Source of the DNA: Thermodesulfobacteriota bacterium
GTDB taxonomy: Bacteria > Desulfobacterota > Desulfarculia > JACQYL01
Assembly (NCBI GenBank): GCA_963675595.2
Contig: CAXXLZ010000001.1
Span: 544,001 to 608,000 of the forward strand
Length of the DNA stretch: 64,000 nt
Direction: 5' to 3'
In this document: positions 32,854 to 60,542 of the stretch, one piece after another
Position numbering within the stretch: position 1 is the first letter of the stretch
Layout: each line of letters begins with the position of its first letter
Notes under the pieces: model-generated
The model's database searches: none
What the model was told of the DNA's origin: nothing
What the model saw: only the letters and a program-made list of their open reading frames with translations
Made by a program: the position numbers and the translations under genes

Positions 32854-33154
32854 CCGCCACTCCCTTCCCGCAGGACCTCCTTCCCAACGAGCTCTACCCT
32901 TAGGGTGTAGCGCACTTCAGGATTCCTCATTGTTTTGTTCAGAGTGTCCGGCTGTTCCGCAGTAGGTTTTGAACTGCGGAAACATCAACCCGGAGACGAT
33001 TCGACTCGTCGGCCCGAAGTCCGAGGAGCTGTCCGTTTGGAAAAAGTCCATTGTGACTTCAGTTAGTTATCATCGGGCTATGTTGGGCCGCGTGTTTTCG
33101 ATGGACGGTCACAAGAGTCATTGGAAGAAAAAATGGACCGTGGATAAGAAAAAA

Positions 33155-33171
33155 ATCGTCTTTTGGACGAT
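33155..33171. promoter_or_regulatory. Candidate operator (inverted repeat) upstream of the methyltransferase operon
   Basis: ATCGTC-N5-GACGAT in an A/T-rich patch with several nearby TGGAC/GTCCA half-sites. Confidence 0.3.
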
Positions 33172-33516
33172 GGTAACCCGAAACCACTTTTCGATATACG
33201 GACTATTAGCGTGGCGCATAGCCATCCAGTGCGTCTGCGTTCCCCGATCACCCTGGCAGCAGGACGGGTCCGGCCTCCCCCGGGCCCGTGAAAGGGAAAG
33301 AACCTGAATACCCTGTCTTACAACAAATCAGGGCTCCATTGTGCGATTCGACTCGCGTCGGATAGCGCTCTCCATTTTCTATCCCATCCAACTCGAAGGT
33401 TTGTCGGAGCTTTTCGCCGCAGCCGTTTTCCCGCGCGGCAGCCCTGGGCTTGGGTTGCGGGGTGAAGCGCGCGACCGTGAGATAACCTTGAGCATTTATT
33501 CAGAAAAGGAGGAAAT

Positions 33517-34473
33517 ATGTTTAAGTTCGCTACTGAGCAGAAAGTCGCCGAAGTCGGAGGGGTGAAGTTTGGGGGTCAGCCGGGCGAGTATCCCTGTGTG
33601 TGCTGCGCTTCGATCTTCCAGAAGGGTGACAAGGTATTCGAAGGCAAGAAGAGGAAAGAAGGATTCAACGAGGAATACGGACTCGAGCTGTTACAGTCCG
33701 CGGAGAAGATGTGGGATGAAACCGGGGTTCCCATTATGGCGGACATTGTGGCGAATACCGGAGCGGAGTTTCAGCAGTTTATCGATTTTGTGACCAATAA
33801 TTCGAAGCTCCCCTTCTGCGTGGATGCCTGGGTCATGAAGCCCAAACTCGAAGGCGCCGCATATTGCGCTGAGAAGGGTCTTTTGGACCGCATGTTCTAC
33901 AACAGCTTGACGGTGTGGGAACAGGACCTGGAAACGGAGATCAAGGAAATCGCCGACATCGGCGTCAAGCACGTGCTTCTGGTTGCTTTCGATCAGGAAG
34001 ACCAAATGCCTTCCGGACGAATCACAGGGACCCAGAAACTACTGGATGTCATTGACAAGGTGGGCGCCAAATTTGAAACGATTTTCGTGGACACGTCGGT
34101 CATGAATGCTCCCGCGACGGCCATGTGCTCCATCGCCAACCGGATGGTCAAAGAGAAATGGGGATTCCCCGCATCGAGCGCTCCCAGCAACGGCTCCTAC
34201 ATGTGGAAAAAAGCCGCCCAGGACAAATGGGGATTCAAGGGCTGGTCCGCAACGGACGCTTCCCTCGAAGGGCTGTCCGCCTTCATGTATCACGACATGA
34301 TTTTCAGCGGTCCCATGGCGGGCTGCTCGCGCATTGCACCCGCGGTGGCGTTGGCGGAAGCTTTCCTGGCCACATGGGTGTTCGCCGAAACGAAGAAACT
34401 TCCCGAGTTGGCAACCCACCCGCTGTACAAGGTGTTCCCGGATTTCGCCGAGCAGATGAAGGGTATGATGTAG
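33517..34473 (+). CDS. MtrH/CmuB/MtgA-like methylcorrinoid:pterin methyltransferase
   Basis: MFKF..EQKV.EVGGVKFGGQPGEYP N-terminus typical of the MtrH family, YNSL, HPL.K.F C-terminus. Confidence 0.85.
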   Translation: MFKFATEQKVAEVGGVKFGGQPGEYPCVCCASIFQKGDKVFEGKKRKEGFNEEYGLELLQSAEKMWDETGVPIMADIVANTGAEFQQFIDFVTNNSKLPFCVDAWVMKPKLEGAAYCAEKGLLDRMFYNSLTVWEQDLETEIKEIADIGVKHVLLVAFDQEDQMPSGRITGTQKLLDVIDKVGAKFETIFVDTSVMNAPATAMCSIANRMVKEKWGFPASSAPSNGSYMWKKAAQDKWGFKGWSATDASLEGLSAFMYHDMIFSGPMAGCSRIAPAVALAEAFLATWVFAETKKLPELATHPLYKVFPDFAEQMKGMM

Positions 34474-34536
34474 AGCGGAAGAGAATCCTGAAGCAGAAAA
34501 ACCATGTCCACAGGGGGACGAAAGGAGCGAGTAAGA

Positions 34537-35589
34537 ATGGCTGAAATGACGCCGAAGGAAAGAGTGCTTAGCCTGTTGAAGAGAGAACCCATCGATACCA
34601 TGCCCTTCTTCAGCGGTATGGGTATGGTGGTCATGCCGGGGATCAAGAAAGCCGGATTGAAGTTTCCTCAGGTGCACACGGACCCGAACAAAATGGCCCA
34701 GTCGGCGATCTGGTCCGCCAAGCTGATGGACTTTGATTGCGTGGTCATTCCTTACGACATGTGTATGGAATCCGAGGCCATGGGAAACAAGATCAGCTTG
34801 TACGAGGATTCCGAAGACATCCTCTATCCGACCATCCCCAATAAGCAATGGAAAACCATGGACGAGGTAGTGGTGCCCAAGAACATTATGGAATTGGGTC
34901 GCATGCCGCTGGTTCCCAAAGCTATTGAAATCATCAAGAAGGAAGCGCCGGAGTATCCCGTGGGGTGCTGGGTGCTCGGACCGTTCACCCAGACCGGCCA
35001 AGTTCTGGAACTGGACATGATCCTCAAGGCCGTTTTCAAGCAGAAGAGCCAGGTTGAAGCGCAGCTGGACAAGATGACCGAAATGGCGATCATTGAAGGA
35101 CAGGCCTTCCAGGCCGCCGGATGCGACTACATTACGCTCCGGGAGCCGGGGGTGGCCGCCGACCTGCTCAGCCCGAAAACGTTCAAGGAAATGATCAAGC
35201 CCAGACTGACCCGAATTCTCGAGGCTTGGAAGTCCCCGAAGATCCTCCATATCTGTGGTTCCTGCGACCCATTGGTGGAAATGATGGCCGATTGCGGCGC
35301 CGACGCCATCACGGTGGACATCAAGACCAGCATCGCCGACGCTCGAAAGAAGCTGGGCGACGATGTGTTGATCTTCGGGAACCTGGACACCTACAATATG
35401 ACGTGCAAGCCGGAAACGCCCAAAGAGATGGTGGTGGAAGAAATCAAGAAGACCATCGACAACGGCGTGGACGCGGTCATGCCCGGCTGCGACTTGTGGC
35501 CCGACATCAAGGAAGAGAATATGCTGGCTTGTGTCCAAACGACACACGAGTACGGCAAAAAACCCAGTCCGGCCGGCAAACGTTTATAG
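34537..35589 (+). CDS. MtaA/CmuA (UroD-fold) corrinoid methyltransferase
   Basis: MTPKERV, E.EAMG, GPFT, zinc ligands LHICG and PGCD. Confidence 0.9.
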   Translation: MAEMTPKERVLSLLKREPIDTMPFFSGMGMVVMPGIKKAGLKFPQVHTDPNKMAQSAIWSAKLMDFDCVVIPYDMCMESEAMGNKISLYEDSEDILYPTIPNKQWKTMDEVVVPKNIMELGRMPLVPKAIEIIKKEAPEYPVGCWVLGPFTQTGQVLELDMILKAVFKQKSQVEAQLDKMTEMAIIEGQAFQAAGCDYITLREPGVAADLLSPKTFKEMIKPRLTRILEAWKSPKILHICGSCDPLVEMMADCGADAITVDIKTSIADARKKLGDDVLIFGNLDTYNMTCKPETPKEMVVEEIKKTIDNGVDAVMPGCDLWPDIKEENMLACVQTTHEYGKKPSPAGKRL

Positions 35590-35628
35590 CAGTTGAAAGA
35601 CCTATAATCACGAAAAGGAGTTTGAGAC

Positions 35629-36300
35629 ATGGCGACGAAAGAAGAGATTTTGAAGGGACTTAGTGATTCCGTAGTGGAGTACAATGAAGACGGCGTTAAG
35701 GAATGGTCCAACAAAGCGTTGGAAGAAAAAGTGGACCCCCTTGAGGCGATCATGGACGGTTTGGCTCACGGCATGCAGATCGTGGGCGATCTCTATGAAC
35801 GTAATGAATACTTTGTGCCGGAAGTTCTGATGTGCGCCGATGCGCTTTACGCCGGTCTGGACATTCTTCGACCCCACGTGCCCCAAGAGCAAAGCGGCAA
35901 GATGAAGGGCCAGGTCGTCATCGGTTCCATCCAGGGCGACGTGCACGATATCGGTAAGAACTTGGTGAAGATGATGTTCGACGTAGCGGGCTTCGAGGTT
36001 TACGACCTGGGCCGCGACGTGCCTCTGGAGAACTTCGTGAAGGAGCAGCTCCGCACGGATTCGGAAATCGTGGCCATGAGCGCCATGATGACCACCACCA
36101 TGCTGGGCATGAAGAAGGTCATCAAGATGATCAAAGAAAAGAACCCCAACGTGATGATCATGTTGGGCGGGGCCCCCGTGACCCGTGACGTATCCACGCT
36201 GTTCGGCGCCGACGGCTACGCGGAAAGTGCCGGAAACGCGGTTACCGAAGGAATCAAGATGATTGGGCGCCTCAGGGAAGTGGAAGGCAAGAACAGATAA
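35629..36300 (+). CDS. Corrinoid (B12-binding) methyl-carrier protein
   Basis: Cap domain plus GDVHDIGKNLV (DxHxxG), SAMMTTT, GGAP. Confidence 0.95.
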   Translation: MATKEEILKGLSDSVVEYNEDGVKEWSNKALEEKVDPLEAIMDGLAHGMQIVGDLYERNEYFVPEVLMCADALYAGLDILRPHVPQEQSGKMKGQVVIGSIQGDVHDIGKNLVKMMFDVAGFEVYDLGRDVPLENFVKEQLRTDSEIVAMSAMMTTTMLGMKKVIKMIKEKNPNVMIMLGGAPVTRDVSTLFGADGYAESAGNAVTEGIKMIGRLREVEGKNR

Positions 36301-36477
36301 TGTGCGATCCGCCGTGGCCTTTTGGGGCACGGCGGGTTATGAAGGGTCCGGATTCCGTTGCCGGGACTGGTCTGGACGCGGGTCCGGATTCACCGCATAC
36401 GTGTTGGACGAACCGTGCGCGGGAACAAAGACGTTTCGCCGGAGAGGCGGAAGAGAACGACTGGAGGAAAGGCGTTA

Positions 36478-38535
36478 ATGGCAAACGACGATACTGTGAT
36501 GGTGATATTCCAACCTTCCGCTCGCCGGGGGCGTGTAAAAAAAGGCTTGAACATTATCGAAGCCTCGCGTGACATCGGTGTGGATATTGAGGCCCTGTGC
36601 GGGGAGAAGAAAGTCTGCGGAAAATGCAAGGTCCGCATCGAGGAAGGGTACTTCGAAAAATATAATATAACGTCCAACATGTCCCATGTTTCTGAATGGC
36701 AGGAAGAGGAAGCCAAGTTCATCAAGGGCAAGGAAAAGGAAGAAGGCTTTCGCCTCGGCTGCGTGGCCAAGATAATGGACGACGTCCTGATTTTCGTGCC
36801 CGAGGAATCCCGCGCCGGTAAGCAGGTGGTGAGCAAGGCGGCCCGCGACATCCATATCGACAACAACCCCGCGGTGAAAACCTACTATGTGGAAATGGAT
36901 CCGCCGACCTTTGAAGAGCCGAGAGGCGACTTTGAGCGCATCGAGGACGAACTGGAAAGAGAGTTCGGTCTCAAGAATCTCCGGCCGGACATCCAGTGCC
37001 TCAGAGACATTCCGGCTGCGGTACGAGACGGCGACTGGAAGGTTACCGCGTGGGTGTGGAACGACCGCGAGGTCATTCGGGTCATGCCCGGAAAAGTGGA
37101 AGACTCCTACGGGATCGCCATCGATATCGGTACCACGACGGTTGCCGGGTATTTCTGCAACCTTCGCACCATGGAGGTGATCAACACCCGTTCCATGATG
37201 AATCCCCAGTGTAAGTACGGTGAGGACGTCATGGCCCGGATCACCTACCATATGATGAACGAGGGCGGCCTTAAACGAATGAGCGATGAGATCATCGCCG
37301 GCTTGAATACCATCATCGACGACCTCGTCGCGGGAACTCATCCGCCCAAGGATCGCAAGAAAAAGAAGAAGGCGGAGGAGGAAGAGCTGGAGGACTTGCC
37401 GGAAAAAGAAGATGAGAGCAAGTACCTGTGCCTGGATCGTGAGGACATCGTTGACCTTACCCTGGTGTTCAACACGGCCATGCATCACATCTGCCTTCAG
37501 CTCGACCCGCAGTACGTCGGACTGGCTCCCTTTCCGCCGGTAATCCATAAGGGGCTCGACGTCAAAGCACGCGATTTGGGACTGAACCTCAACAAGTGCG
37601 CCTTCGTGCACGTGCTCCCCAATGAAGCCGGTTTCGTGGGCGCGGACAACGTGGGCGTGCTCATCGCCGAGGAGCCGTACAAGAAGGATGAGATGGCGCT
37701 GCTCATCGACATCGGCACCAACGGTGAATTGGTTTTGGGCAACAAACACAAGATGGTTTCCTCCTCCTGTGCCACCGGTCCGGCCTTGGAAGGCGCTCAG
37801 CTCAGCTACGGCATGCGGGCGGCCCCGGGTGCCATCGAGCGTATCGAGATCGATCCGGAAACACACGAGGTCAGTTACAAGACCATCGGTTGTGATGCGT
37901 GGTCCAAGTTCGCGGATAAGAAGGACCTTAAGACCAAGGGCATCTGCGGGTCAGGTATTCTGGACGTGCTGGCCGAACTGTACAAGTCCGGCGTCATCAA
38001 CAAGGCCGGGCGGTTCAGCAAGGACCAGAAGTCCAATCGGTACCGGATCAATCCCGAAACCAAGCAGCCTGAATTCGTCATCGCGTGGTCCGACGAAACT
38101 TCCATTAAGAAGGACGTGGTGATTTCGCAGAAGGACATCCGGCAGATTCAGTTGGCCAAGGGTGCCTTGTATTGCGGGTGCAAGCTCATGATGCGCCGCA
38201 TGGGCGTGGATAAGGTGGACACCATCAAGATCGCCGGTGCGTTCGGTACGCATGTGGACCGGGCCAAGGCGTTGATCATGGGGCTGTTCCCCGACTGTGA
38301 AATCGAAAAGATTCATTCCGTGGGCAATGCCGCCGGTGACGGCGCGCGCTGCGCACTGCTGAACAAGGAGAAGCGGACTGAGGCCAACTGGGTGGCCAGA
38401 AACGTGGAATACATCGAACTGACGGTGGAAGAGGATTTCCAGAAGCAGTTCATGGAAGCCATGCAGATTCCGCACATGACCGATCCTTTCCCGCATCTGA
38501 GAGGCGTGGTGAAAGACGAGATTCTGGACCAGTAG
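36478..38535 (+). CDS. ASKHA/DUF4445 reductive activator of corrinoid proteins (RACE/RACo-like) with N-terminal Fe-S domain
   Basis: CG...CGKC...RLGC, DIGTTT, NPQ..YGEDV, GFVGAD, DIGTNGE, CATGPALEG, GICGSG, AGAFG, GNAA. Confidence 0.92.
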   Translation: MANDDTVMVIFQPSARRGRVKKGLNIIEASRDIGVDIEALCGEKKVCGKCKVRIEEGYFEKYNITSNMSHVSEWQEEEAKFIKGKEKEEGFRLGCVAKIMDDVLIFVPEESRAGKQVVSKAARDIHIDNNPAVKTYYVEMDPPTFEEPRGDFERIEDELEREFGLKNLRPDIQCLRDIPAAVRDGDWKVTAWVWNDREVIRVMPGKVEDSYGIAIDIGTTTVAGYFCNLRTMEVINTRSMMNPQCKYGEDVMARITYHMMNEGGLKRMSDEIIAGLNTIIDDLVAGTHPPKDRKKKKKAEEEELEDLPEKEDESKYLCLDREDIVDLTLVFNTAMHHICLQLDPQYVGLAPFPPVIHKGLDVKARDLGLNLNKCAFVHVLPNEAGFVGADNVGVLIAEEPYKKDEMALLIDIGTNGELVLGNKHKMVSSSCATGPALEGAQLSYGMRAAPGAIERIEIDPETHEVSYKTIGCDAWSKFADKKDLKTKGICGSGILDVLAELYKSGVINKAGRFSKDQKSNRYRINPETKQPEFVIAWSDETSIKKDVVISQKDIRQIQLAKGALYCGCKLMMRRMGVDKVDTIKIAGAFGTHVDRAKALIMGLFPDCEIEKIHSVGNAAGDGARCALLNKEKRTEANWVARNVEYIELTVEEDFQKQFMEAMQIPHMTDPFPHLRGVVKDEILDQ

Positions 38536-38586
38536 GGGAAGACATCCTCGGAGGGCTCAGTGCCCTCCGGGGGATTTCGAGGTTGT

Positions 38587-38913
38587 ATGAAAGTTCGAGT
38601 GGATCCTGGAATTTGTGGATTTCATTGTAAGATTGAAGCGGTAAAACAAGAGAAGTATCGAGTTAAGTTGAGCATCGAGAGCGAATGCAAACTTATTCGG
38701 CATTTGGCTGATGAAGTCGTGGAAATGGACATGAGAGACGTGGTGGGAAAACCGCACGGCACGAGCGTGTTGGTCCAAAACGCGGGTCGCTGCCGTCTTC
38801 ACGCGGCATGTCCCATACCCATGGCGTGTATCAAGGCTGTCGAGGCGGAACTAGGTTTGGCGTTGCCGCGACCGGTTCGAATCGACTTCGAGGAGGAAGA
38901 CGGGCAAAGTTAA
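38587..38913 (+). CDS. Small Cys-containing conserved protein (DUF6951-like)
   Basis: PGICGF...S.C...H.ACP.P...K..E.E.GLAL pattern. Confidence 0.65.
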   Translation: MKVRVDPGICGFHCKIEAVKQEKYRVKLSIESECKLIRHLADEVVEMDMRDVVGKPHGTSVLVQNAGRCRLHAACPIPMACIKAVEAELGLALPRPVRIDFEEEDGQS

Positions 38914-39525
38914 GGAGGCCTTTCGCGCACCATGCTTGGCGAGTCGACAAGGTGGCCCCTATAGCGCTATAATTTTGTTTAAACGGTATAAATAAGCTGT
39001 GAGAGACCGATGACGGTTGTTGCACCTGCGAACAGATCTCTGCCGCGGTTCCCCTCGGGCGGGAGGTGACGTTACCCTTCCGGCGCCGGGATGCGTTCGG
39101 TGGTGTTCGACCGAAACCTCGCAGGTTCGCCGTGGGGTCTTGCGCGGAAGTCCGGCCCCGTCTCACGCCGCCGAAGAGTTCTTTCCGGCGGGAAACGCCC
39201 TGTAGATCAAAGACGTTCGTCTCAGATCATCCATCACTTTCCCAACGCATTCATTGAAGCATCGATCGTAGATAGGTTCTGCCAGGGTTCCCCGGTGACT
39301 CGATCCGGAGCTTTACTCGAGGCTCTCGAGAAGAGTGACCGCGATCCTGAACGTCCAACCGGTTCACATTGGAGACCAACGGACGCCCCCATTAGGCGTC
39401 TCAAGGCTTACCCTCGGACACTTTTGTTACTCCCGTTGGGGGGCGGGAACAACCAAGGTTCCGGCAGGGTGAAGTGTGAAGTAAGGTGAAGGTAAGAAGG
39501 ACCGAAACCAAGTAAGGAGGTACAC

Positions 39526-40587
39526 ATGGCGAAACAGCTACTCATTGATGCGTACCACGGAAAGAAGACCAAGGGTGTTCCGTGGGTGCCCTATGCCGGG
39601 GTTCATTGCGCATTCGTCATCGGGGAACCCGGTGACAAGTACATGCAGGACCCCGAGCTCCTGGCCAAGGGCGTGGTGGAGACGGCCAAGCTGTACAAGG
39701 CGGACGGAATTCCGTTGGTCTTCGACCTTTCCGTTGAGGCCACTTCCATGGGTTGCGGCATCAAATGGTGGCCGGATAACGTGCCCAGCGTAACGACGCA
39801 CCCCGCCGCCGGCTGCAGCGTAGCGGAAGCCGGACTGAAGATTCCCGGTCCCACCGACGGTCGCTGGCCCGTCCTCATCGAAGCGGCCAAGATCGCCAAA
39901 CCTCAACTGGACGAACTGGATTGCGCACTGATGGGCCTGCTTTGCGGGCCTCTCACCTTGGCCGCCCATCTCAAAGGCGTCAAAGTGTTTACGGATGTCT
40001 ACAAAGACAAAGCGGCCGCGCATGACGTAATCTCGTTCTCAGGCAAGGTGGCAGCCAAATCCGCCGAGATCTACGCCGACATGGGATGCGACATCATCGC
40101 CATCGTCGATCCCGTGGCTTCGCAGATCAAAGATGAAACCTTCCAAGAATTCGTAACCCCCAATTGCCAAGAAGCCATCAAAGTGATCCACGAACACGGA
40201 AAGACCTCCTCTTTCTTCATTTGTGGAGACGCCACCAAGGTGATGAAGTCCGTGGCTACCCTCGGGACCCATGGATTCGCCATCGACGAGCAGTTAAACA
40301 TGAACTTTGTCCGCGACATCGCTCTGAAATACGGCGTTGGATTCGGCGGCAACTTGAAGCTCACCCTGGCTCTTTCCCTGGGTCTGCTTTCTCCTCGTGA
40401 AGACGCCATTGTGAGTCTGGCCGCGGGAGGGTGCCACGGCTACACCTTCGCCCCTGGGTGAGACATGCCTTACGATGTTCCGGTGGAACATATGCAGCAG
40501 GCCATGGAGGCGAGAGACTGGTACTACGAATACTACGCCGCCTATCCCGATGATCCCGATATCGCGAAGACCTTCAAGGTCGCGTAA
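39526..40587 (+). CDS. Putative selenocysteine-containing UroD/MtaA-family methyltransferase (353 aa, Sec at UGA 40459-40461)
   Basis: The ORF track stops at ...TFAPG*, but the frame continues DMPYDVPVEHMQQAME... to TAA 40585-40587; the UGA aligns with the PGCD/SGCE Cys of the paralogues; SECIS-like hairpin follows. Confidence 0.85.
40462..40494 (+). promoter_or_regulatory. Bacterial SECIS-like hairpin
   Basis: ATGTTCC(40475-81)-GGT-GGAACAT(40485-91) perfect 7-bp stem; apical G about 21 nt after the UGA. Confidence 0.7.
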
Positions 40588-40598
40588 GGAGGTTGGAT

Positions 40599-40985
40599 AT
40601 GGCAACCATCAACATCGATATCCTCACACTGGACAGCGTTCAATGCGCGGCGTGCGGATATATGACGGAGGCCATCGCGGCCCTGCCGGATGACGTCCAG
40701 CAGCTGATTCAGTACAAGGAATGGTCGATCAAGCAGAAGGAGGGCATCGGTAAGTTCCTCGAGCTGAAGGGGAAGGTGCTTCCCACCATCTGTATCCAGG
40801 GTGACCTGGTATTTGAGAGTATCATTCCCCAATACGAGGAATTGATCGACGAAATGGCCAAAAGGGCTCCCAGCCCGGAGGTCGCCGATCGGCTCAAATC
40901 TCTCAGAGAGAAGGGCTTCGACTTCGAAAAAATCCAGGAGAACCTGGCGAAAGCCGGTGCGGGGCAGAACACCAGAGCGAATTAG
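40599..40985 (+). CDS. Thioredoxin-fold protein (CAAC)
   Basis: IDILTLDSVQCAACGYM, cis-Pro-like LPTICI.G..VF...IP; AAGGAGG RBS overlaps the upstream TAA. Confidence 0.85.
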   Translation: MATINIDILTLDSVQCAACGYMTEAIAALPDDVQQLIQYKEWSIKQKEGIGKFLELKGKVLPTICIQGDLVFESIIPQYEELIDEMAKRAPSPEVADRLKSLREKGFDFEKIQENLAKAGAGQNTRAN

Positions 40986-41018
40986 CCCCGCTCCCCCGGC
41001 TTCTAGCCGAAACGATTT

Positions 41019-41051
41019 CCATAACCGCCGGGTGCTTCCCGGCGGTTATGG
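41019..41051. terminator. Strong intergenic hairpin (terminator or mRNA-stabilising stem)
   Basis: CCATAACCGCCGGG/CCCGGCGGTTATGG perfect 14-bp stem; only a weak U-tail. Confidence 0.5.
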
Positions 41052-41234
41052 GATTTCGCCCCTCCGATCCTCGATAAGCGTTTTATTCGCCGAGAACGGG
41101 AACCCGGATTTTTGAACAGATGAGTTCCCGCGAGGTTGGGGGCGAGGGAATTGTCTGCGTGAAGCAGGGGAGACGAAACGCGCATCAAACGGGGATCTTT
41201 TCCCGGCAACTATTTAAGATGAGTCAGGAAAGGG

Positions 41235-41585
41235 GTGTTCTTCAGGTTGCCTAAAATCCATTTGGAGATCATCTATCAGGGAGAGCATTGCCCACAGTGT
41301 TTTTACATGCTCGAGGCCGTTGAGACGGTGGCGCCCAAGTTTGGGGACCGTATCAGCTATGAACTCATCGAGTACACCAAAAACAAAGCTCACGCCCGTC
41401 GTTTCTATGAACTTTCCGTTTCCCTCCATGGCGAAAAAGCGGTTCGAGGGCTGGTCAGGGTAGCGCCGATACCCTCCATATTCATCGGCGGCAAACTGGT
41501 TTTCGATTGTATTCCGCCCTTGGATGAACTCGAAGAGACTCTCGCCGGGCATCTGGCCTTGGCCGAGGGGCAGGCTTCGGAGTGA
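41235..41585 (+). CDS. Thioredoxin-fold protein (CPQC)
   Basis: LEIIYQGEHCPQCFYM, APIPSIFIGGKLVF; start could be TTG 41247. Confidence 0.8.
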   Translation: MFFRLPKIHLEIIYQGEHCPQCFYMLEAVETVAPKFGDRISYELIEYTKNKAHARRFYELSVSLHGEKAVRGLVRVAPIPSIFIGGKLVFDCIPPLDELEETLAGHLALAEGQASE

Positions 41586-41591
41586 ATTCCC

Positions 41592-41876
41592 ATGGCCAAA
41601 GTTCGATTGGAGGTCGTTTACGAGGGGGACCATTGTATTCCGTGCGTCTACATGGCGAGACTCGTAGAGGAAGTGGTCCCGCGTTTCGGTGAAAAGGTGA
41701 CTTGGGAGAAAATCGTGCTGCGGGACAAGGCAGGCGCCAAACGGTTTCATGAGCTGTCCGTTGCCATGGGCAGACCGGCTCCCATACCCTCCATCTTTAT
41801 TGACGGAGAACTACGATTTTCCATAACACCGGCGGCCGAGGACCTGGAAGCCGCCTTACGTGAGTGCTTGGACTGA
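41592..41876 (+). CDS. Thioredoxin-fold protein (CIPC)
   Basis: LEVVYEGDHCIPCVYM, APIPSIFIDGEL.F; paralogue of the upstream gene. Confidence 0.82.
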   Translation: MAKVRLEVVYEGDHCIPCVYMARLVEEVVPRFGEKVTWEKIVLRDKAGAKRFHELSVAMGRPAPIPSIFIDGELRFSITPAAEDLEAALRECLD

Positions 41877-41900
41877 GTTGCGTGTCCATGGTTCGGATGC

Positions 41901-42830
41901 ATGTACATTTTTAAGACTACATCCGTATGTGCGCGGGAGATTCACTTCGAACTTGATGGAGAAGTGATCCGATGGGTCCGCTTTGTGGGTGGCGGGTGTC
42001 CGGGAAACGCGGATGCGGTGGCGCGACTGCTGGAGGGCAAGACCCTTGATAGCGTGATCCCGATGCTTCGGGGGATCCCCTGCAGGGAAGGCACCTCGTG
42101 CCCAGATCAGCTGGTGCGTGCTTTTGAGTCGGTCCGGGCCGGGACAATGGCTCCCGCTCCCGCGATTCCCGTGGAGTCGGAGACCGAACCGTTGTGCCGG
42201 GTCGCCGTTGTGGCCGACGTCAATGGGAACCTCCGCGCGTTGGAGCGCTTCGCGGGTGTTTTTGAAACCGAAGATGTGCAGGCCGTGTATTGTTTGGGAA
42301 ATCTTGTTGCTCGCGGTATGGATAACGACTCTGTGGTCGGGTGGGTCCGGAAAAGCGGGTGGAGGTGTCTTCAAGGTTCTCTGGACCGGGCGTCCGCTCA
42401 CTTGTGCTCCGGAAACGCGAACGACGATAACGTACCTGTTCTCGAACCCAGAAACCGGGACTTCCTGGTAACCCTCCCACTGATGCGAACCTTTTTGATG
42501 GACACTCGAAAGGTTTTGGCATTTTACGATGGATTCATTCAGGATCTCGAAGGGTTCTCGGACTATGCGCCTTTTTCCACCGAGATCATTCAGGTCTGTG
42601 ATCTCAGTGAATACTTGAGCGACGAAAGCGTGTTTCCCGCTTTGGAGGCTATGACCGGGCAGTTTTCCTCGGATGTGGTGCTTTTCGGACACACCGGGAA
42701 AAACAAACACGTACGGTTGGGAGAGGTGGACTTCGTCAATGTAGGAGCGCTTTCGCTCAGCTCGTCCGGCACCTATACCTTGTTGACCCTCGATAATGGA
42801 AAACTCGTAGTGGAATTCAAACGCATTTGA
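41901..42830 (+). CDS. TSCPD-domain (TIGR03905-like) protein fused to a degenerate calcineurin-like metallophosphoesterase domain
   Basis: N-terminus VCA..I.F.....V.F.GGGCPGN...GI.C...TSCPDQL; C-terminus ADVNGN, CLGNLV, FGHTG, VNVGA. Confidence 0.75.
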   Translation: MYIFKTTSVCAREIHFELDGEVIRWVRFVGGGCPGNADAVARLLEGKTLDSVIPMLRGIPCREGTSCPDQLVRAFESVRAGTMAPAPAIPVESETEPLCRVAVVADVNGNLRALERFAGVFETEDVQAVYCLGNLVARGMDNDSVVGWVRKSGWRCLQGSLDRASAHLCSGNANDDNVPVLEPRNRDFLVTLPLMRTFLMDTRKVLAFYDGFIQDLEGFSDYAPFSTEIIQVCDLSEYLSDESVFPALEAMTGQFSSDVVLFGHTGKNKHVRLGEVDFVNVGALSLSSSGTYTLLTLDNGKLVVEFKRI

Positions 42831-42871
42831 GTTGAGAGGTCGCCAAGAGCGGGTTGTATTAGGAGGATCAG

Positions 42872-43150
42872 ATGGCAAGAGTGACAGTGGACGTGCTGCT
42901 GACGGATTTCAGGCAGTGACTGGCCTGCGTCTACATGGCGGAATCGGTAAAGGCTTTACCGAATGAGATACAAGACCTGATCGAAGTAAGAGAGTGGGAC
43001 ATGCGCACAAGGGAGGGAGTGGTCAGGTTCAAGCAATTGAAGGCGAAATCTCTTCCCAGCGTTGCCCTCAACGACGAACTCGTGTTCGAAGCCAATATCC
43101 CTCCTCAGGAAGACCTGATTCAGGCAATTAGGGACCGATACGTCGGATGA
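42872..43150 (+). CDS. Putative selenoprotein, thioredoxin fold with U-x-x-C (92 aa, Sec at UGA 42917-42919)
   Basis: AGGAGG RBS, ATG 42872, MARVTVDVLLTDFRQ-U-LACVYMAESV...; colinear with the CAAC paralogue at 40599; SECIS-like hairpin downstream. Confidence 0.88.
42920..42965 (+). promoter_or_regulatory. Bacterial SECIS-like hairpin
   Basis: TCGGTAAA(42944-51)-GGC-TTTACCGA(42955-62) perfect 8-bp stem; apical G 33 nt after the UGA. Confidence 0.65.
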
Positions 43151-43515
43151 AAGGGGGAAGGTGCGCGGGCATGCGCGCTGCTTTTCACAAGTGTCTTTGC
43201 GTTTCATCACGGAAGGAAGGCGTCGCGAACGGTGCTCTGCCGTACCGGCGATGCCGGAGACGGTTTCTGGAAGGCGGACGACACCCGTGAGGCTTGAGAA
43301 TGCTCTTTGGTGCGGTCGTACCGGCCCGGTCGGCTTTTACGCTGCGGGTGGTTGGAACGGCCCGGAGAGGACGGTGGGGGCTCTTGGCGAATCCTCCGCA
43401 TGCCGAATTCGTCGATTCGGAGTCAAACGAAATTTCGTAACCGGACTTTAGCTTGAAATACAGGGAGTGCCGGGGGAATCCATACGACGGCTGTTTTCCC
43501 CTCGCGAAGGTCTAC

Positions 43516-44499
43516 ATGCTTTTTCTAGAAGAATTCAAAGCGCATGGATTCAAGTCTTATGCGGAGGAAGTCACCGCTTCATTCAATCCCGGGATCGGAG
43601 TGATCATCGGGAACAACGGGGTGGGAAAATCCAACATTCTTGACGCCATCACTTGGGCGTTGGGAGAGGACGATCTTGGGAAACTCAGATGCTACTCCAC
43701 GGAGGACTTGTTCTACACGGGGGGGAAGGACCATCCACGTGCGGAAGAAGTCCGGGTGGAACTGCGTTTCAAAAAGGGACCCGATAAGAACGATGAAAGT
43801 TTCGTGACCTCGCGTTGTCTGGACCGATCCGGAATCGAATCCTATTTCATCGAGGGAGATCGACTTTCCAAGGACGCCTACCGAGAGCGCCTTTTTGAGT
43901 TTGGGCTCGGGGATGCCCTCAAGTCCCTGGTGAGGCAGGAGGAACTCAACGACTTCCTGCAACTGCACCCCTGTGATCGTCTGGAGTACTTTCGGTTCTT
44001 TGTTGAATCATCGGCGGAAGAATCGGACAATGGCGCGGGGATTGAGGCCTTCGACGCCGAGTTTCGCAGACTTTACAGGGGCATGATGGCACGAGGTGAT
44101 GGGCGTGTTTTCATTGATCGGTTCAACGGTCGCTCAGGACTCGAAATAGAGGTGACTTTTCCCGACAAAGGGACCAAGAAGGCACGGTTCCTCTCGGGAG
44201 GTGAGAAAACCGTGGCGTCGCTTGCGGCGAAGCTTGCGCTGTTCGGCAGGCTGCAGTCTCCCTTCTACCTGCTCGACGAGGTGGAACCCTCTCTGGATTG
44301 GACGAACCATCGGAACATGTCCAATTTACTGAAGGACTTGGCAAAACGACGGCAACTGATCATGATCACCCATCTCAGGAGCACCATCGAGGTGGCCGAC
44401 ACGGTTCACGGGGTAAGAACCCAGTTTGACGGCAGCTCGTTTATGAAGTTCCATTTCGTCATGGATAAGAGGTTACTCCGCCTCTACAAATGCTGTTGA
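43516..44499 (+). CDS. SMC-head-like ABC ATPase lacking long coiled coils/hinge, C-terminal Cys-Cys
   Basis: GFKSY, GNNGVGKSNILDAI, Q-loop VRQ, LSGGEK, FYLLDEVE..LD, ITH; about 327 aa. Confidence 0.82.
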   Translation: MLFLEEFKAHGFKSYAEEVTASFNPGIGVIIGNNGVGKSNILDAITWALGEDDLGKLRCYSTEDLFYTGGKDHPRAEEVRVELRFKKGPDKNDESFVTSRCLDRSGIESYFIEGDRLSKDAYRERLFEFGLGDALKSLVRQEELNDFLQLHPCDRLEYFRFFVESSAEESDNGAGIEAFDAEFRRLYRGMMARGDGRVFIDRFNGRSGLEIEVTFPDKGTKKARFLSGGEKTVASLAAKLALFGRLQSPFYLLDEVEPSLDWTNHRNMSNLLKDLAKRRQLIMITHLRSTIEVADTVHGVRTQFDGSSFMKFHFVMDKRLLRLYKCC

Positions 44500-44857: not shown

Positions 44858-45931
44858 ATGACGCAACCATCGTCGATTGCAGGCTCGGCCAAAGCCAAGG
44901 TGGTACTGCTGGCGGGGTTTCTGGGGGCGGGAAAGACCACGCTGTTGAAGCGAATCTTATCCTGGGAGGGCGACCTTTCGGACACCGTTGTGCTGGTGAA
45001 TGAGTTCGGCGACGTGGGCATCGACGGAGCTCTGCTTCAGCAAGCGGGTTCCGACGTGATCGAACTGACCAGCGGCTGCATTTGCTGCACGCTGGCGGCC
45101 GACTTAATCCAGAGTCTGAAAGGCATCGCGGAGCGTTTCAATCCGAAACGAATCATGATCGAAGCCACGGGTGTTGCAGATCCCACTTCCATTACGGCCG
45201 TGCTGGATCAGCCTTTCATCAGGGATGTAATGGAGCATCAATCCACGCTGACCGTTCTTGACGCCGATTTCTGGGAGGCGAGGGAAAACTTCGGGCCGCT
45301 GTTTTATCGTCAGTTGAGCGAGGGGGATCTGATTCTTCTCAACAAGATCGACTTGCTCGAACCGGAACAGGTCCCCGTGTTCCTAAAGGAGATTCATCAA
45401 GAGTTTCCCGGTAGTAGGGTAGTGCCTACGGTGCACTGCGCAGTGGACCCGGACACTTTGTGGAATGTGCGATCCAAACGACACGGCGGAACCGAGTTGG
45501 CTCCTTTTTTCCCCACGCTCTCCGTCGAGCAAGGCGATGAGCAGGGAACCGCCGAACACCACCCACATCATCATAGTGATCATCATCACCATGGGCACGA
45601 TCACCACCATGGGCACGATCACCACCATGACTGCGAGTCCCATGCGGGGATTCAGGCCCCGGAGGCGGGATATGTCAGCTTCTATTTTCGGGACGACCGG
45701 CCCTTGGACGAAAGCCTTTTCGCGAGTTTCCTGGCGGAATTACCTTGGGAGGTGTTTCGGGTGAAAGGTCCGGTACGTTTCCCCGACAAGACCTTGTTGG
45801 TGAATTTCGTCGGAGGCAAGGCCGAATGGATCGACTGGGAGGACGTGGGCACAAGCCTTGCCTTTGTCGCTTGGAAAGTGGACTCCCGGGAGATTCTTTC
45901 AAAGCTGGAACGGTGTTTTGCCCCTTCTTGA
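44858..45931 (+). CDS. COG0523/CobW family metallochaperone GTPase with His-rich loop
   Basis: GFLGAGKTT, NEFG, GCICC, EATG, NKID, poly-His tract, R.KG in CobW_C. Confidence 0.92.
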   Translation: MTQPSSIAGSAKAKVVLLAGFLGAGKTTLLKRILSWEGDLSDTVVLVNEFGDVGIDGALLQQAGSDVIELTSGCICCTLAADLIQSLKGIAERFNPKRIMIEATGVADPTSITAVLDQPFIRDVMEHQSTLTVLDADFWEARENFGPLFYRQLSEGDLILLNKIDLLEPEQVPVFLKEIHQEFPGSRVVPTVHCAVDPDTLWNVRSKRHGGTELAPFFPTLSVEQGDEQGTAEHHPHHHSDHHHHGHDHHHGHDHHHDCESHAGIQAPEAGYVSFYFRDDRPLDESLFASFLAELPWEVFRVKGPVRFPDKTLLVNFVGGKAEWIDWEDVGTSLAFVAWKVDSREILSKLERCFAPS

Positions 45932-45973: not shown

Positions 45974-46219
45974 ATGAAAATCCAGGTATTAGGCCCAGGC
46001 TGCAAGAGATGCAATCAACTTTACGACAATGTCGTTGAAGCGGTGAAGAGCCTGAATCTCGCCGACCGGGCAGAGATTGTCAAAGTGGGAGACTTGGACG
46101 TTTTTGCAAAATACGGCGTGTTCACCACGCCCGGTCTGGTCATCGACGAGCAGGTCATATCCGTGGGTAAGCTATTGACCGTTCAGGAAATTGAAAAAGA
46201 GATCAAAGCGAGGATCTAA
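45974..46219 (+). CDS. Small redox-active disulfide protein (MTH895/TIGR00412-like)
   Basis: MKIQVLGPGCKRC, YGV..TPGLVIDE. Confidence 0.88.
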   Translation: MKIQVLGPGCKRCNQLYDNVVEAVKSLNLADRAEIVKVGDLDVFAKYGVFTTPGLVIDEQVISVGKLLTVQEIEKEIKARI

Positions 46220-46221
46220 TC

Positions 46222-47229
46222 ATGGCGGGAAAGACGTTCGTCTTTCTGATCACCGGCTTTTTGGGATCGGGGAAGACCACATTTCTCAACCGGGTTATCC
46301 GCCAATTCCCGGGAGATCGCAAGCTGATGATCCTGATGAATGAATTCGGCGAGGTCGACGTGGACGGTACGCTGGTCGAGGGTGAGGACCTCGATATGGT
46401 GGAGATCAGCAAAGGTTCCATCTTCTGTGCCTGTGTTAAGACCGATTTCGTCAAGGCGCTGAATTCCATCGCCCAGACCATCCGTCCCGACGTGCTGCTC
46501 ATCGAATCCACGGGCGTGGCCAACCCATCCGACTTGAAGAGAGATCTGAGACTATCGATTTTTAAGGATCGATTCCAATTTCAAGAGCAGTTCTGCATGA
46601 TCGACGCCGGTCACTTCCTGGACGCCTACGGTGCCTACCAGTCCATTGAGAAGCAGTTGGCTTCGTCCACGGTTTTCTTGATCAACAAGACGGATACCGC
46701 CGATGGGGGAACCATCGCTCGGATCAAAGAGGTGGTTCGGGAGCACCATCCGGACCCCGTGTTTCACGAAACGACTTTCGCCGAAGTCGATGTAAGTCAT
46801 CTTCTCTTGCCCGGAGAAACCGAGGAAGCGTTCTCGGAAGAGGGACCGGATACACCCATGACTCCGGAAGAACTGGACAGCTACTGTGAAAAATTGTTAG
46901 AAGATCCTGAAGCGCAGGTGACCCCTCCGGACCGTCTTCTTTCCGCGGTGTACCGGTGGGAAGGCGAAAGTATTGATGCCTTCAAGAAAACGGCCGGCAA
47001 TCTTCCTAAAGGGATTGTGCGTTCCAAGGGGTTCCTGGTGGATGGCGAGGAAACGGTCCTGTTCAGTTATGTTCTGGGGGACTGGAAGTTGATGCCGCGA
47101 CAGGTTCCCGACGGAAGGGCGGGGCAGAAAAACCTGATCGTGTTTATCGGTTCCCCGGAGTCCATGGCGGAGCTTGCCGAAAGAGCCTCGGAGGCGAATC
47201 TTTCGCCGGCGCCCAAGAACGAAGCATGA
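46222..47229 (+). CDS. COG0523/CobW-like GTPase (GSIFCAC variant)
   Basis: GFLGSGKTT, NEFG, GSIFCAC, ESTG, NKTD, RSKGF. Confidence 0.88.
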   Translation: MAGKTFVFLITGFLGSGKTTFLNRVIRQFPGDRKLMILMNEFGEVDVDGTLVEGEDLDMVEISKGSIFCACVKTDFVKALNSIAQTIRPDVLLIESTGVANPSDLKRDLRLSIFKDRFQFQEQFCMIDAGHFLDAYGAYQSIEKQLASSTVFLINKTDTADGGTIARIKEVVREHHPDPVFHETTFAEVDVSHLLLPGETEEAFSEEGPDTPMTPEELDSYCEKLLEDPEAQVTPPDRLLSAVYRWEGESIDAFKKTAGNLPKGIVRSKGFLVDGEETVLFSYVLGDWKLMPRQVPDGRAGQKNLIVFIGSPESMAELAERASEANLSPAPKNEA

Positions 47230-59528: not shown

Positions 59529-60542
59529 TTACCTTTCCCCGCAAGCGGCCGAAACCATGGCGGCGATGTTCTCGGGCGCGGCTTCCGGAGGAATTTCGCA
59601 GCCCGAAGAGAGAATGAACCCACCACGCCGGGCAAATATACGTAACAAACGGTGTGATTCATCCGAAATTTGCTCGGGAGTGCCTTCCACAAAGGAGAGC
59701 GGCTTGATATTGCCGTTGAAACAGGTATGGGGGAGCGCCTCCATGGCCTGTTGCGGGTCCACGCAGAAATCGAGGTTGGCGAGGTTCACGTGGGCTTGGG
59801 GATAGAAGCGGAGAATCGGCGCCACGGGACCTGCCGTGTGCAGCCAGTTTACAGCCGACCCCGCCTGTTTGAAGGCGGCGAAGATGCGTTGAAGCCGGGG
59901 CAGCAGGAATTCTCGGTAAAACCCGGGGGGGACCACGTCCGGTGATGCGGAAGGATCGAAAACGATGGGCAAGTGGGCGCCCGCCTCCAACTGTGCCGTA
60001 CCGAAACGGATGATTACTTCGGAGGCGAAGTCCAGGAGACGCTCAAAAAGCTCCGGGGCGTCAATGGCCAAGTAAAGGCTCGTCTCCGCACCGGCCAACT
60101 GCATGGCCAAAGTCATGGGGCCCACCACGCAGCCCACCACCAGAACGTCGTTCCCCACTTCCCGCCGCAGGATGCCCGCAGCCTTCAACAGCTCGGGCAT
60201 ACGGCCCTCGGTGCGTGGGTCGGGCACGAGAAGCGTGTCAATATCCATGCCTGCAGAAAAGACGTAGGACGACACCACCGGATACCGACCGGTTCCATAG
60301 CTCAAAACCGAACCCACGGCTTCCGTTTCCACGCCCACGTCCATTAACGCGAAAACCGCGTCGTAGCCGTAGCGGTTGAGCGCCTTTGCCTGGCAGCGAG
60401 CCAGAAGCTCGCCGTCCCGGACGTAATGGTTCAAGTCCACTCCGCTCAGCACTGCGGCATGGCCGAACACCTGGGCGATCACCGGCACACGGTCCGTCCC
60501 CCGAAAGCTCACAGCCGCCTGAATGCGTTCCAGGCTATTCAA
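59529..60542 (-). CDS. UroD/MtaA-family protein
   Basis: SLERI.A...DRVPV, E.EAVG, GPMT, DPSAS, GNI.P, GFILSSGCEIP...PENI; HxC replaced by HTA. Confidence 0.88.
   Translation of the reverse strand: MNSLERIQAAVSFRGTDRVPVIAQVFGHAAVLSGVDLNHYVRDGELLARCQAKALNRYGYDAVFALMDVGVETEAVGSVLSYGTGRYPVVSSYVFSAGMDIDTLLVPDPRTEGRMPELLKAAGILRREVGNDVLVVGCVVGPMTLAMQLAGAETSLYLAIDAPELFERLLDFASEVIIRFGTAQLEAGAHLPIVFDPSASPDVVPPGFYREFLLPRLQRIFAAFKQAGSAVNWLHTAGPVAPILRFYPQAHVNLANLDFCVDPQQAMEALPHTCFNGNIKPLSFVEGTPEQISDESHRLLRIFARRGGFILSSGCEIPPEAAPENIAAMVSAACGER

Follow-up and report, generated by a model that had tools for sequence, protein, structure and literature searches.

The enzymes described so far that lie closest to the subject of this report belong to the MtaA/UroD superfamily, and the only one with a solved structure that we could relate to it by sequence is MtaA of Methanosarcina mazei, a methylcobamide:coenzyme M methyltransferase (PDB 4AY7/4AY8). 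From other folds it is known that selenocysteine (Sec) can take the place of a metal-binding Cys, as in formate dehydrogenase and [NiFeSe] hydrogenase. A 2026 review with a table of prokaryotic selenoproteins adds HgcA and the metal-binding MbdU as examples of the same kind, and also lists the thioredoxin-like HUIPC family (NCBIfam NF047660), for which it gives Haft and Tolstoy 2025 as the source (PMC13188914). As far as the consulted parts of PMC10418091 go, UroD-type S-methyltransferases hold zinc in a His-Cys-Cys site, and the MtaA homologues found in type I mlp clusters of bacteria (Mlp) and in the sdm genes of Methanococcus, which are linked to methyl-selenium, show a statistical association with selenium-using genomes; for one Mlp, transfer of a methyl group from methylcobalamin to selenide is described. 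Here we describe a gene of this superfamily, at 39526-40587 on the + strand of a 64,000-nucleotide (nt) stretch of a Thermodesulfobacteriota genome (contig CAXXLZ010000001.1, positions 544,001 to 608,000; hereafter the window, to which positions refer). An in-frame UGA of this MtaA-like gene, at 40459-40461, almost certainly encodes Sec at the active site. As the best explanation overall we propose a 353-residue Sec-containing MtaA/UroD protein with the decoding, active site and partner set out below, and put its probability at roughly 0.88.

The gene resembles that of MtaA in superfamily, in length, in the Cys of an x-C-G motif, in an acidic residue and in a C-terminal PG-C motif, as well as in lying near genes for a corrinoid protein and its activase. 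Unlike MtaA, it has Sec for the C-terminal Cys, Phe for the canonical His, an obligatory thioredoxin-like partner, and hosts among sulfate reducers and Bacillota, which are not known to make coenzyme M. With the Mlp and sdm enzymes it shares the position of an MtaA homologue beside a corrinoid protein and a RACo-type activase; the Mlp proteins, however, keep His-Cys-Cys and are not described as selenoproteins in the consulted parts of PMC10418091, whereas here the selenium would lie within the enzyme itself. The likeness to the selenoproteins with Sec at a metal-binding Cys lies in a Sec/Cys exchange at a residue contacting a metal or organometallic cofactor, although fold and metal are different.

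The open reading frame starts at the ATG at 39526 and reaches the TGA at 40459-40461 after 311 amino acids, the form found in databases. The same frame runs on for 41 codons to a TAA (40585-87), which overlaps the AAGGAGG preceding the next ATG (40599). With the TGA read as Sec (U), 39526-40587 yields 353 amino acids containing ...YTFAPG-U-DMPYDVPVEH..., in which Sec is residue 312. The match to the URO-D domain (Pfam PF01208) covers residues 2-331, across the UGA, and its score of 155 bits exceeds the cut-off of 23.9. On all of this the original prediction, made from the letters of the window, agrees with the sequence: it had placed the UGA in TFAPG-*-DMPYDVP, given the read-through product 353 residues and had it end at a TAA overlapping the next ribosome binding site. 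The two paralogues that it named, at 34504 (AVMPGCDLWP) and 59529 (ILSSGCEIPP), indeed have Cys at the alignment column of the UGA.

How this column behaves in other genomes was followed in proteins and in DNA. A search of 5.8 billion proteins returned, among the best 120 matches, 111 entries of exactly 311 residues, three of 307 and six of full length (341-346 residues). That standard annotation would truncate the gene, as had been foreseen, is thus borne out by 114 of the best 120 matches, which stop at the UGA. In five of the six full-length proteins the column holds Cys. The sixth (P0011, 344 residues) has Trp there, in SPGWDMPYDVP, and adjoins a Sec clade in the tree described below; its Trp could stem from a mutation to TGG or from a gene call under the table-4 code, in which TGA means Trp. 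At the DNA level we assembled 65 loci, namely the window, ten from a phylum sample of 401 genomes (10 of the 401 had a match) and 54 from named genome contigs. The codon is TGA in 62 of the 65, TGC in two and TGT in one, so that the UGA-bearing homologues expected beyond this genome turn out to be the rule. Past the TGA, the frame is open and conserved over 30-47 codons in 61 of these 62 loci, with the consensus D[MLI]P[YF]DVPxEH...W[FY]..Y..YP; the DNA of the 62nd (L045) stops 27 nt past the TGA. The carriers comprise Desulfobacterales, Desulfobulbaceae, Desulfotomaculum and Peptococcaceae, along with metagenome-assembled genomes labelled SAR324, Myxococcota and Spirochaetia.

These data bear on the simplest alternative, that the UGA is a true stop which leaves a truncated or decaying 311-residue protein and 41 untranslated codons. 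Gene callers do end there in those 114 matches, and longer RNA folds around the site are thermodynamically unremarkable (see below). Against a stop stand the open and amino-acid-conserved frame downstream of the TGA, the Cys that homologues carry at the column, the match of the missing part to the last helix of MtaA, to residue 347/348, and the ribosome site of the next gene, which lies at the TAA and not at the TGA. We judge a true stop extremely improbable. Nor is the TGA at 40459-40461 a sequencing error: contigs of two DNA sequencing runs span it with no alternative letter. Contigs of two RNA libraries (X1 and X2) also span it with no alternative letter; carry-over of DNA into these is possible, so transcription is not claimed.

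The hosting genome (6.79 Mb) is equipped for Sec synthesis and insertion, with selA (621 bits), selB (404 bits), selD (386 bits), which itself carries one TGA, and a tRNA-Sec with anticodon TCA; within the 64-kb window no tRNA genes were found. The original prediction had named two findings that would speak against Sec, a genome without selABC and close relatives uniformly carrying Cys codons. The genome encodes selA, selB, selD and tRNA-Sec, and 62 of the 65 loci have TGA, so the hidden selenocysteine stands on both counts.

Immediately 3' of the UGA lies a candidate for the selenocysteine insertion sequence (SECIS). Its apical hairpin (40475-40491, + strand) has a 7-bp stem with arms at 40475-81 and 40485-91 and a GGU loop at 40482-84, within which the conserved core GUUCC-GNN-GGAAC spans 40477-40489. 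It had been predicted as a perfect 7-bp hairpin with a GGT loop about 21 nt past the UGA, and was found at a UGA-to-loop spacing of 20 nt. An alignment of 61 sequences that carry the TGA and have 66 nt of DNA after it reveals frozen synonymous sites confined to the hairpin. Most conserved codons flanking it on either side have a synonymous-codon entropy of 0.8-1.9 bits, against a value close to 0 at Val+6 (GTT in 60/60), Pro+7 (CCG in 60/61) and Glu+9 (GAA in 59/60); in codon +8 the third base is G in all sequences. The loop opens with G, followed by G or U, in 61/61, counting L073 with a one-base shift of the stem. Stem positions pair in 94.5% of cells versus 16-55% in slid controls. Compensatory, two-sided changes number two (U-A to C-G in L031, and one in L073) against 0.1 expected in shuffles, and RNAalifold recovers the 5-bp core. 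The hairpin alone folds at -7.2 kcal/mol (z -2.53; 4 of 200 shuffles as good).

By the published consensus for bacterial SECIS elements, as given in the consulted parts of PMC13188914, the loop has 3-9 nt, the stem 4-16 bp, the UGA-to-loop distance is 16-37 nt and the minimum free energy is at most -7.5 kcal/mol; a G is required among the first two loop bases, usually with G or U after it. With a 3-nt loop beginning G-G, a 7-bp stem of which 5 bp are conserved and a distance of 20 nt, GUUCC-GNN-GGAAC fits this model, and the apical G expected of an element 3' of the UGA is present in every sequence of the alignment. Several observations weigh in the other direction. The hairpin is short, and at -7.2 kcal/mol it misses the energy limit, passing only together with a putative lower stem. 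That longer element (47 nt) reaches -13.5 kcal/mol, which 31 of 200 shuffles equal (z -0.92), and for a 72-nt fold 118 of 200 shuffles do as well (z +0.28). The covariation comes from two sequences, most stem pairs being invariant, and three Cys-form DNAs retain GTTCC...GGAAC. These three have CCC for CCG and a changed first base in the next codon, and because of these changes the leading G of the loop is lost in 3/3. Since the longer folds are no better than shuffles, the support for a SECIS is comparative and not thermodynamic. An Rfam scan of 33000-43500 at E <= 1 gave no match, which places the hairpin and the roughly 600-nt leader of the gene outside the curated RNA families.

A UGA might also be read as Trp, Cys or Gly through near-cognate decoding or local recoding, and the Trp of P0011 lends this some colour; either TGG or a table-4 gene call could lie behind it. 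Yet the genome has the full Sec machinery, the conserved hairpin opens its loop with G at SECIS distance, non-TGA relatives have Cys at the column in 8/9 cases (Trp is the other), and TGA terminates ordinary genes of the window, for example at 43148-50. Another residue at this position is accordingly a very slim prospect, hardly better than that of a stop. For Sec itself, we propose that SelB and Sec-tRNA(Sec) would read the UGA at 40459-61 as in standard Sec biology, and that the GUUCC-GNN-GGAAC hairpin, with its loop beginning 20 nt past the UGA, would direct the decoding.

The alignment with MtaA (4AY7; E 8e-24, residues 22-334 against 37-347) runs across the UGA and includes in its C-terminal part the last helix, to residue 347/348. 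In it U312 pairs with the Cys of LAPGCGI, C233 (FFICGD) with the Cys of LHICG, and D254, which is invariant, with the acidic residue of SVEEK. The aligned residues of 4AY7 are those that we take, consistently with the alignment numbering, to be the zinc ligands of MtaA. Thus Sec312 is placed by alignment at the enzyme active site, at the column of the C-terminal zinc-ligand Cys of MtaA and adjacent to the conserved Cys233 and to Asp254. The original prediction had gone further and put the UGA at the third zinc ligand: the correspondence with the 4AY7 Cys holds, but zinc binding is not established. Of the His-Cys-Cys triad, the first Cys is kept, the second is Sec, and the His is Phe in 61/61 Sec forms (motif FFICG[DN]); it is also missing in most Cys forms and outgroups. 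With the canonical His replaced by Phe, the enzyme no longer has the classical His-Cys-Cys zinc site, and this is a point against Sec312 as a zinc or other metal ligand, a role that is therefore unproven. Scores for the MtaA-type models TIGR01463 (126.4, cut-off 235.4) and NF040654 (105.6, cut-off 400) are both below threshold and hence set the family apart as a clade of its own, with the classical site altered.

Start-coupled to the selenoprotein gene is a gene for a thioredoxin-like protein with a CAAC motif (40599-40985, + strand), which we call G1. It has the thioredoxin fold with an invariant Q-C-A-A-C and a V-L-P loop, and it follows the enzyme gene directly in 60 of 64 other loci at 52-81% identity. 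It is missing from four loci: the Cys paralogue of the same genome, a further Cys form, a locus whose DNA stops too early, and L087. An exhaustive homologue search over 1.84 billion representative proteins uncovered the enzyme and G1 in one chain in distant Cys homologues of 34-39% identity (P0126, with CAPC, P0128, P0132 and P0134). In the 458-residue chain of P0128, PGCDMPYDVP is followed by CAAC. A C-terminal fusion of Cys homologues to a CAAC domain, as given in the original prediction, is consequently real, but it is limited to these distant homologues; close Cys homologues are not fused to G1. In another distant homologue, P0157, the active-site Cys and the CxxC are both lost.

To these observations we add a model of the complex of a natural Cys-form enzyme (L032) with its partner, computed with alignments of our own. 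It scored 0.83 versus 0.18 for the best of three controls. By way of calibration, 58 of 80 solved complexes and 2 of 110 mismatched pairs came up to that score, counts that apply only roughly here since the alignments were our own. Runs agreed in at least 87% of contacts, with a partner pLDDT of at least 83. The modelled interface comprises enzyme residues 232-234 (x-C-G), 253, 255 and 311-312 (the Sec column) and partner residues 15-19 (Q-C-A-A) and 61-63 (V-L-P). The model supports docking of the G1 CAAC motif on the Cys233/Sec312 site. A weak point for the metal-ligand reading is that the modelled G1 occupies the face on which we would expect the corrinoid protein to dock.

Further thioredoxin-like genes follow G1 on the same strand. 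Two belong with the HUIPC family in Cys form, one at 41235-41585 with HCPQC, which at 84.8 bits is under the NF047660 cut-off of 105, and one at 41592-41876 with HCIPC, over it at 132 bits; elsewhere the motif column of HUIPC has TGA in 12 loci and, besides the window, Cys in 10. At 42872-43150 lies what appears to be a second hidden selenoprotein, G2, a thioredoxin-like protein of 92 residues with Q-U-L-A-C (TGA 42917-19; motif TDFRQ-U-LAC-VYM), which gene callers would begin at the Met at 42935. Its hairpin (42944-62) has 8 bp and a GGC loop at a UGA-to-loop distance of 32 nt. The DFxQ-U-xxC column has TGA in 29/29 sources having the motif, the window included, with no Cys form seen. In NCBIfam the sole match of G2 is sub-threshold, to NF047660, with which both G1 (E 1e-8) and G2 (E 4e-12) show distant kinship. 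The cluster thus contains a member of the HUIPC family (41592-41876) and two distant relatives; HUIPC itself is already listed in the review table, whereas neither the MtaA-like enzyme nor the QUxAC protein appears in it (PMC13188914).

Downstream of G2, also on the + strand, are two CobW/COG0523-type GTPases, at 44858-45931 (Pfam cobW and CobW_C; a His-rich stretch and a putative metallochaperone) and at 46222-47229 (Pfam cobW). A CobW-type gene lies near the enzyme gene in 43 of 64 loci at a coverage of at least 50%. Upstream of the selenoprotein gene is a set of genes typed by Pfam and NCBIfam for corrinoid methyl transfer (33517-38913, + strand), consisting of an MtrH-like protein, a canonical MtaA-like protein with H-x-C ... 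GC, a corrinoid protein (35629-36300), a RACo-type reductive activase (36358-38535) and DUF6951. Its members occur within at most 6 kb of the enzyme gene in at least 18-31 of 64 loci, a lower bound as many loci are short; the corrinoid protein accounts for at least 31/64 and the activase for at least 26/64.

The neighbouring genes suggest corrinoid-linked methyl transfer that involves a soft heteroatom; most likely the reaction would carry a methyl group to or from such an atom, of the S, Se or As type. The active site would be made of Cys233, Sec312 and probably Asp254, within reach of the CAAC motif of the partner, in a family that would have lost the canonical His and gained an obligatory CAAC thioredoxin-like partner. 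The Cys/Sec pair would then either hold the catalytic metal or cycle through a selenenylsulfide that the partner resolves. To the former, an altered metal site that may be loaded by the CobW-type GTPases or completed by the partner, we give about an even chance. In the latter, Sec is real and no metal ligand, and Cys233/Sec312 form a redox-active or nucleophilic pair; the selenolate might, for example, accept a methyl group from methyl-corrinoid or attack the substrate, with the CAAC, QUxAC and HUIPC proteins reducing the selenenylsulfide. Phe for His in all 61 Sec forms and the loss of His in most outgroups are consistent with such a pair, since the zinc site of UroD-type S-methyltransferases is His-Cys-Cys in the part of PMC10418091 that bears on it. 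So are the up to four thioredoxin-fold genes of the cluster, two of whose families have Sec, the partner CxxC modelled onto the Cys/Sec site, and P0157, which is without the Cys and the CxxC alike. The invariance of Asp254, aligned with the acidic residue of MtaA, and the CobW/COG0523 GTPases in 43 of 64 loci, typical of metal delivery, argue the other way, and a Cys/Asp/Sec or partner-completed site could still bind a metal. We regard the non-metal pair as a serious contender at somewhat less than even odds.

A wider proposal is that the Sec-containing MtaA-like enzyme, its CAAC partner, the QUxAC and HUIPC proteins and the CobW GTPases might form one machine for an undescribed corrinoid-dependent reaction, in which a Cys/Sec centre would be completed in trans by the partner instead of by a His-Cys-Cys zinc site. 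Its reaction could be the methylation or demethylation of a metalloid of the Se or As type, or methyl transfer to a protein-borne thiol or selenol. We offer this tentatively and think it rather unlikely as a whole.

The same genome has a Cys paralogue of the enzyme (G000:C2:2857594-2858622; L033, and 8595-9623 of L088) with 72% identity and TGC at the column. It lacks the thioredoxin-like partner, and its neighbours encode a CCG/4Fe-4S protein, a TPP/POR-type enzyme and a flavoprotein of the old-yellow-enzyme type. The two genes may be a pair of Sec/Cys isoenzymes. A quick maximum-likelihood tree was made from 76 rows. These were 61 Sec forms, 8 Cys forms, P0011 and the enzyme domain of 6 outgroups; L045, being truncated, was omitted. 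In this tree the Cys outgroups and a basal Cys pair (L032 and L077) fall outside a mostly-Sec clade. Inside this clade the Cys forms are scattered, which takes 7 changes, at least 5 of them forced by well-supported branches. The gene of the window and the Cys paralogue from the same genome come together in the tree (SH-aLRT 93), with a long branch. As the tree is a quick one with a midpoint root, the order of Sec/Cys events that it implies is only a suggestion.

Several other features were seen in and around the cluster. The third MtaA-like paralogue (59529-60542, - strand) keeps the His and SSGCE and has Ala for the first Cys (LHTAG), and is another departure from His-Cys-Cys within the window. 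A small thioredoxin-like protein of the MTH895/ArsE family (45974-46219) lies between the two CobW-type genes. A fusion of TSCPD to a metallophosphoesterase (41901-42830) and a short ATPase of the SMC-head type (43453-44499) recur in 9/64 and 7/64 loci, respectively, mainly in Bacillota. Upstream of the selenoprotein gene, 612 nt (38914-39525) are without a listed gene and contain, near their start, a strong sigma-70-like site (38944-73, 11/12 positions), from which a leader of about 550 nt would follow; promoter-like sites (2 versus 1.9 expected) and terminator-like sites (5 versus 5.8 expected) are not above chance. In the orthologous cluster of a Desulfotomaculum copahuensis contig (L034), 7780-8907 encodes a 375-residue fusion of thioredoxin to a MIP channel of the aquaporin/glycerol-facilitator type, and this fusion hints at a small uncharged substrate; the same cluster has an ATP:corrinoid adenosyltransferase, DUF5714 and a triple-HTH (helix-turn-helix) regulator. 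The methanol operon of D. kuznetsovii is reported to include a 'uroporphyrinogen decarboxylase' and a P47K gene (PMC11206085 and PMC5770442); from the consulted parts of these papers no link of the former gene to the Sec-containing MtaA-like family was established.

Turning to novelty, the main text of the 2026 review, with its prokaryotic selenoprotein table, contains none of the terms uroporphyrinogen, MtaA, URO-D, PF01208 and TIGR01463, and its seven 'methyltransferase' entries are of other families (PMC13188914). The comparison with published family lists that had been proposed therefore leaves the family absent from that table. The main text of BSepDB, whose family list is a supplement, has no URO-D, MtaA, corrinoid or methyltransferase term, and NCBIfam release 20 holds no model specific to the Sec-containing MtaA-like family; a multispecies RefSeq entry of Desulfofundulus has 311 residues. 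Two papers on dichloromethane fermenters (PMC9768040 and PMC6778437) describe no Sec-containing MtaA. A Sec-containing MtaA/UroD protein was not found in the literature searched, whose scope did not extend to Haft and Gwadz 2023, Haft and Tolstoy 2025 and the BSepDB supplement, which may bear on novelty. We conclude that these proteins make up a genuine selenoprotein family that has apparently not been described before. It is a Sec version of the MtaA-like fold, its active site is altered, and it has a thioredoxin-like protein as dedicated partner.

If so, databases shorten a widespread enzyme of sulfate reducers and related anaerobes by 30-47 residues, with loss of what would be a key catalytic residue, and metabolic models and proteome searches that use the truncated entries will miss the Sec residue. 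The finding would give a corrinoid-methyltransferase fold selenium in its active site, something absent among the families of the 2026 review table. Candidate partners are also defined: a thioredoxin-like protein, fused to the enzyme or encoded next to it, two other selenoprotein families of the thioredoxin type, and GTPases of the metallochaperone type. The family has carriers in culture, for example Desulfospira joergensenii DSM 10085, Desulfotomaculum copahuensis and Desulfofundulus species, which makes bench work on the system feasible, and the Sec form of the window and the Cys form (G000:C2:2857594) in one genome would provide a natural test of why this family uses Sec.

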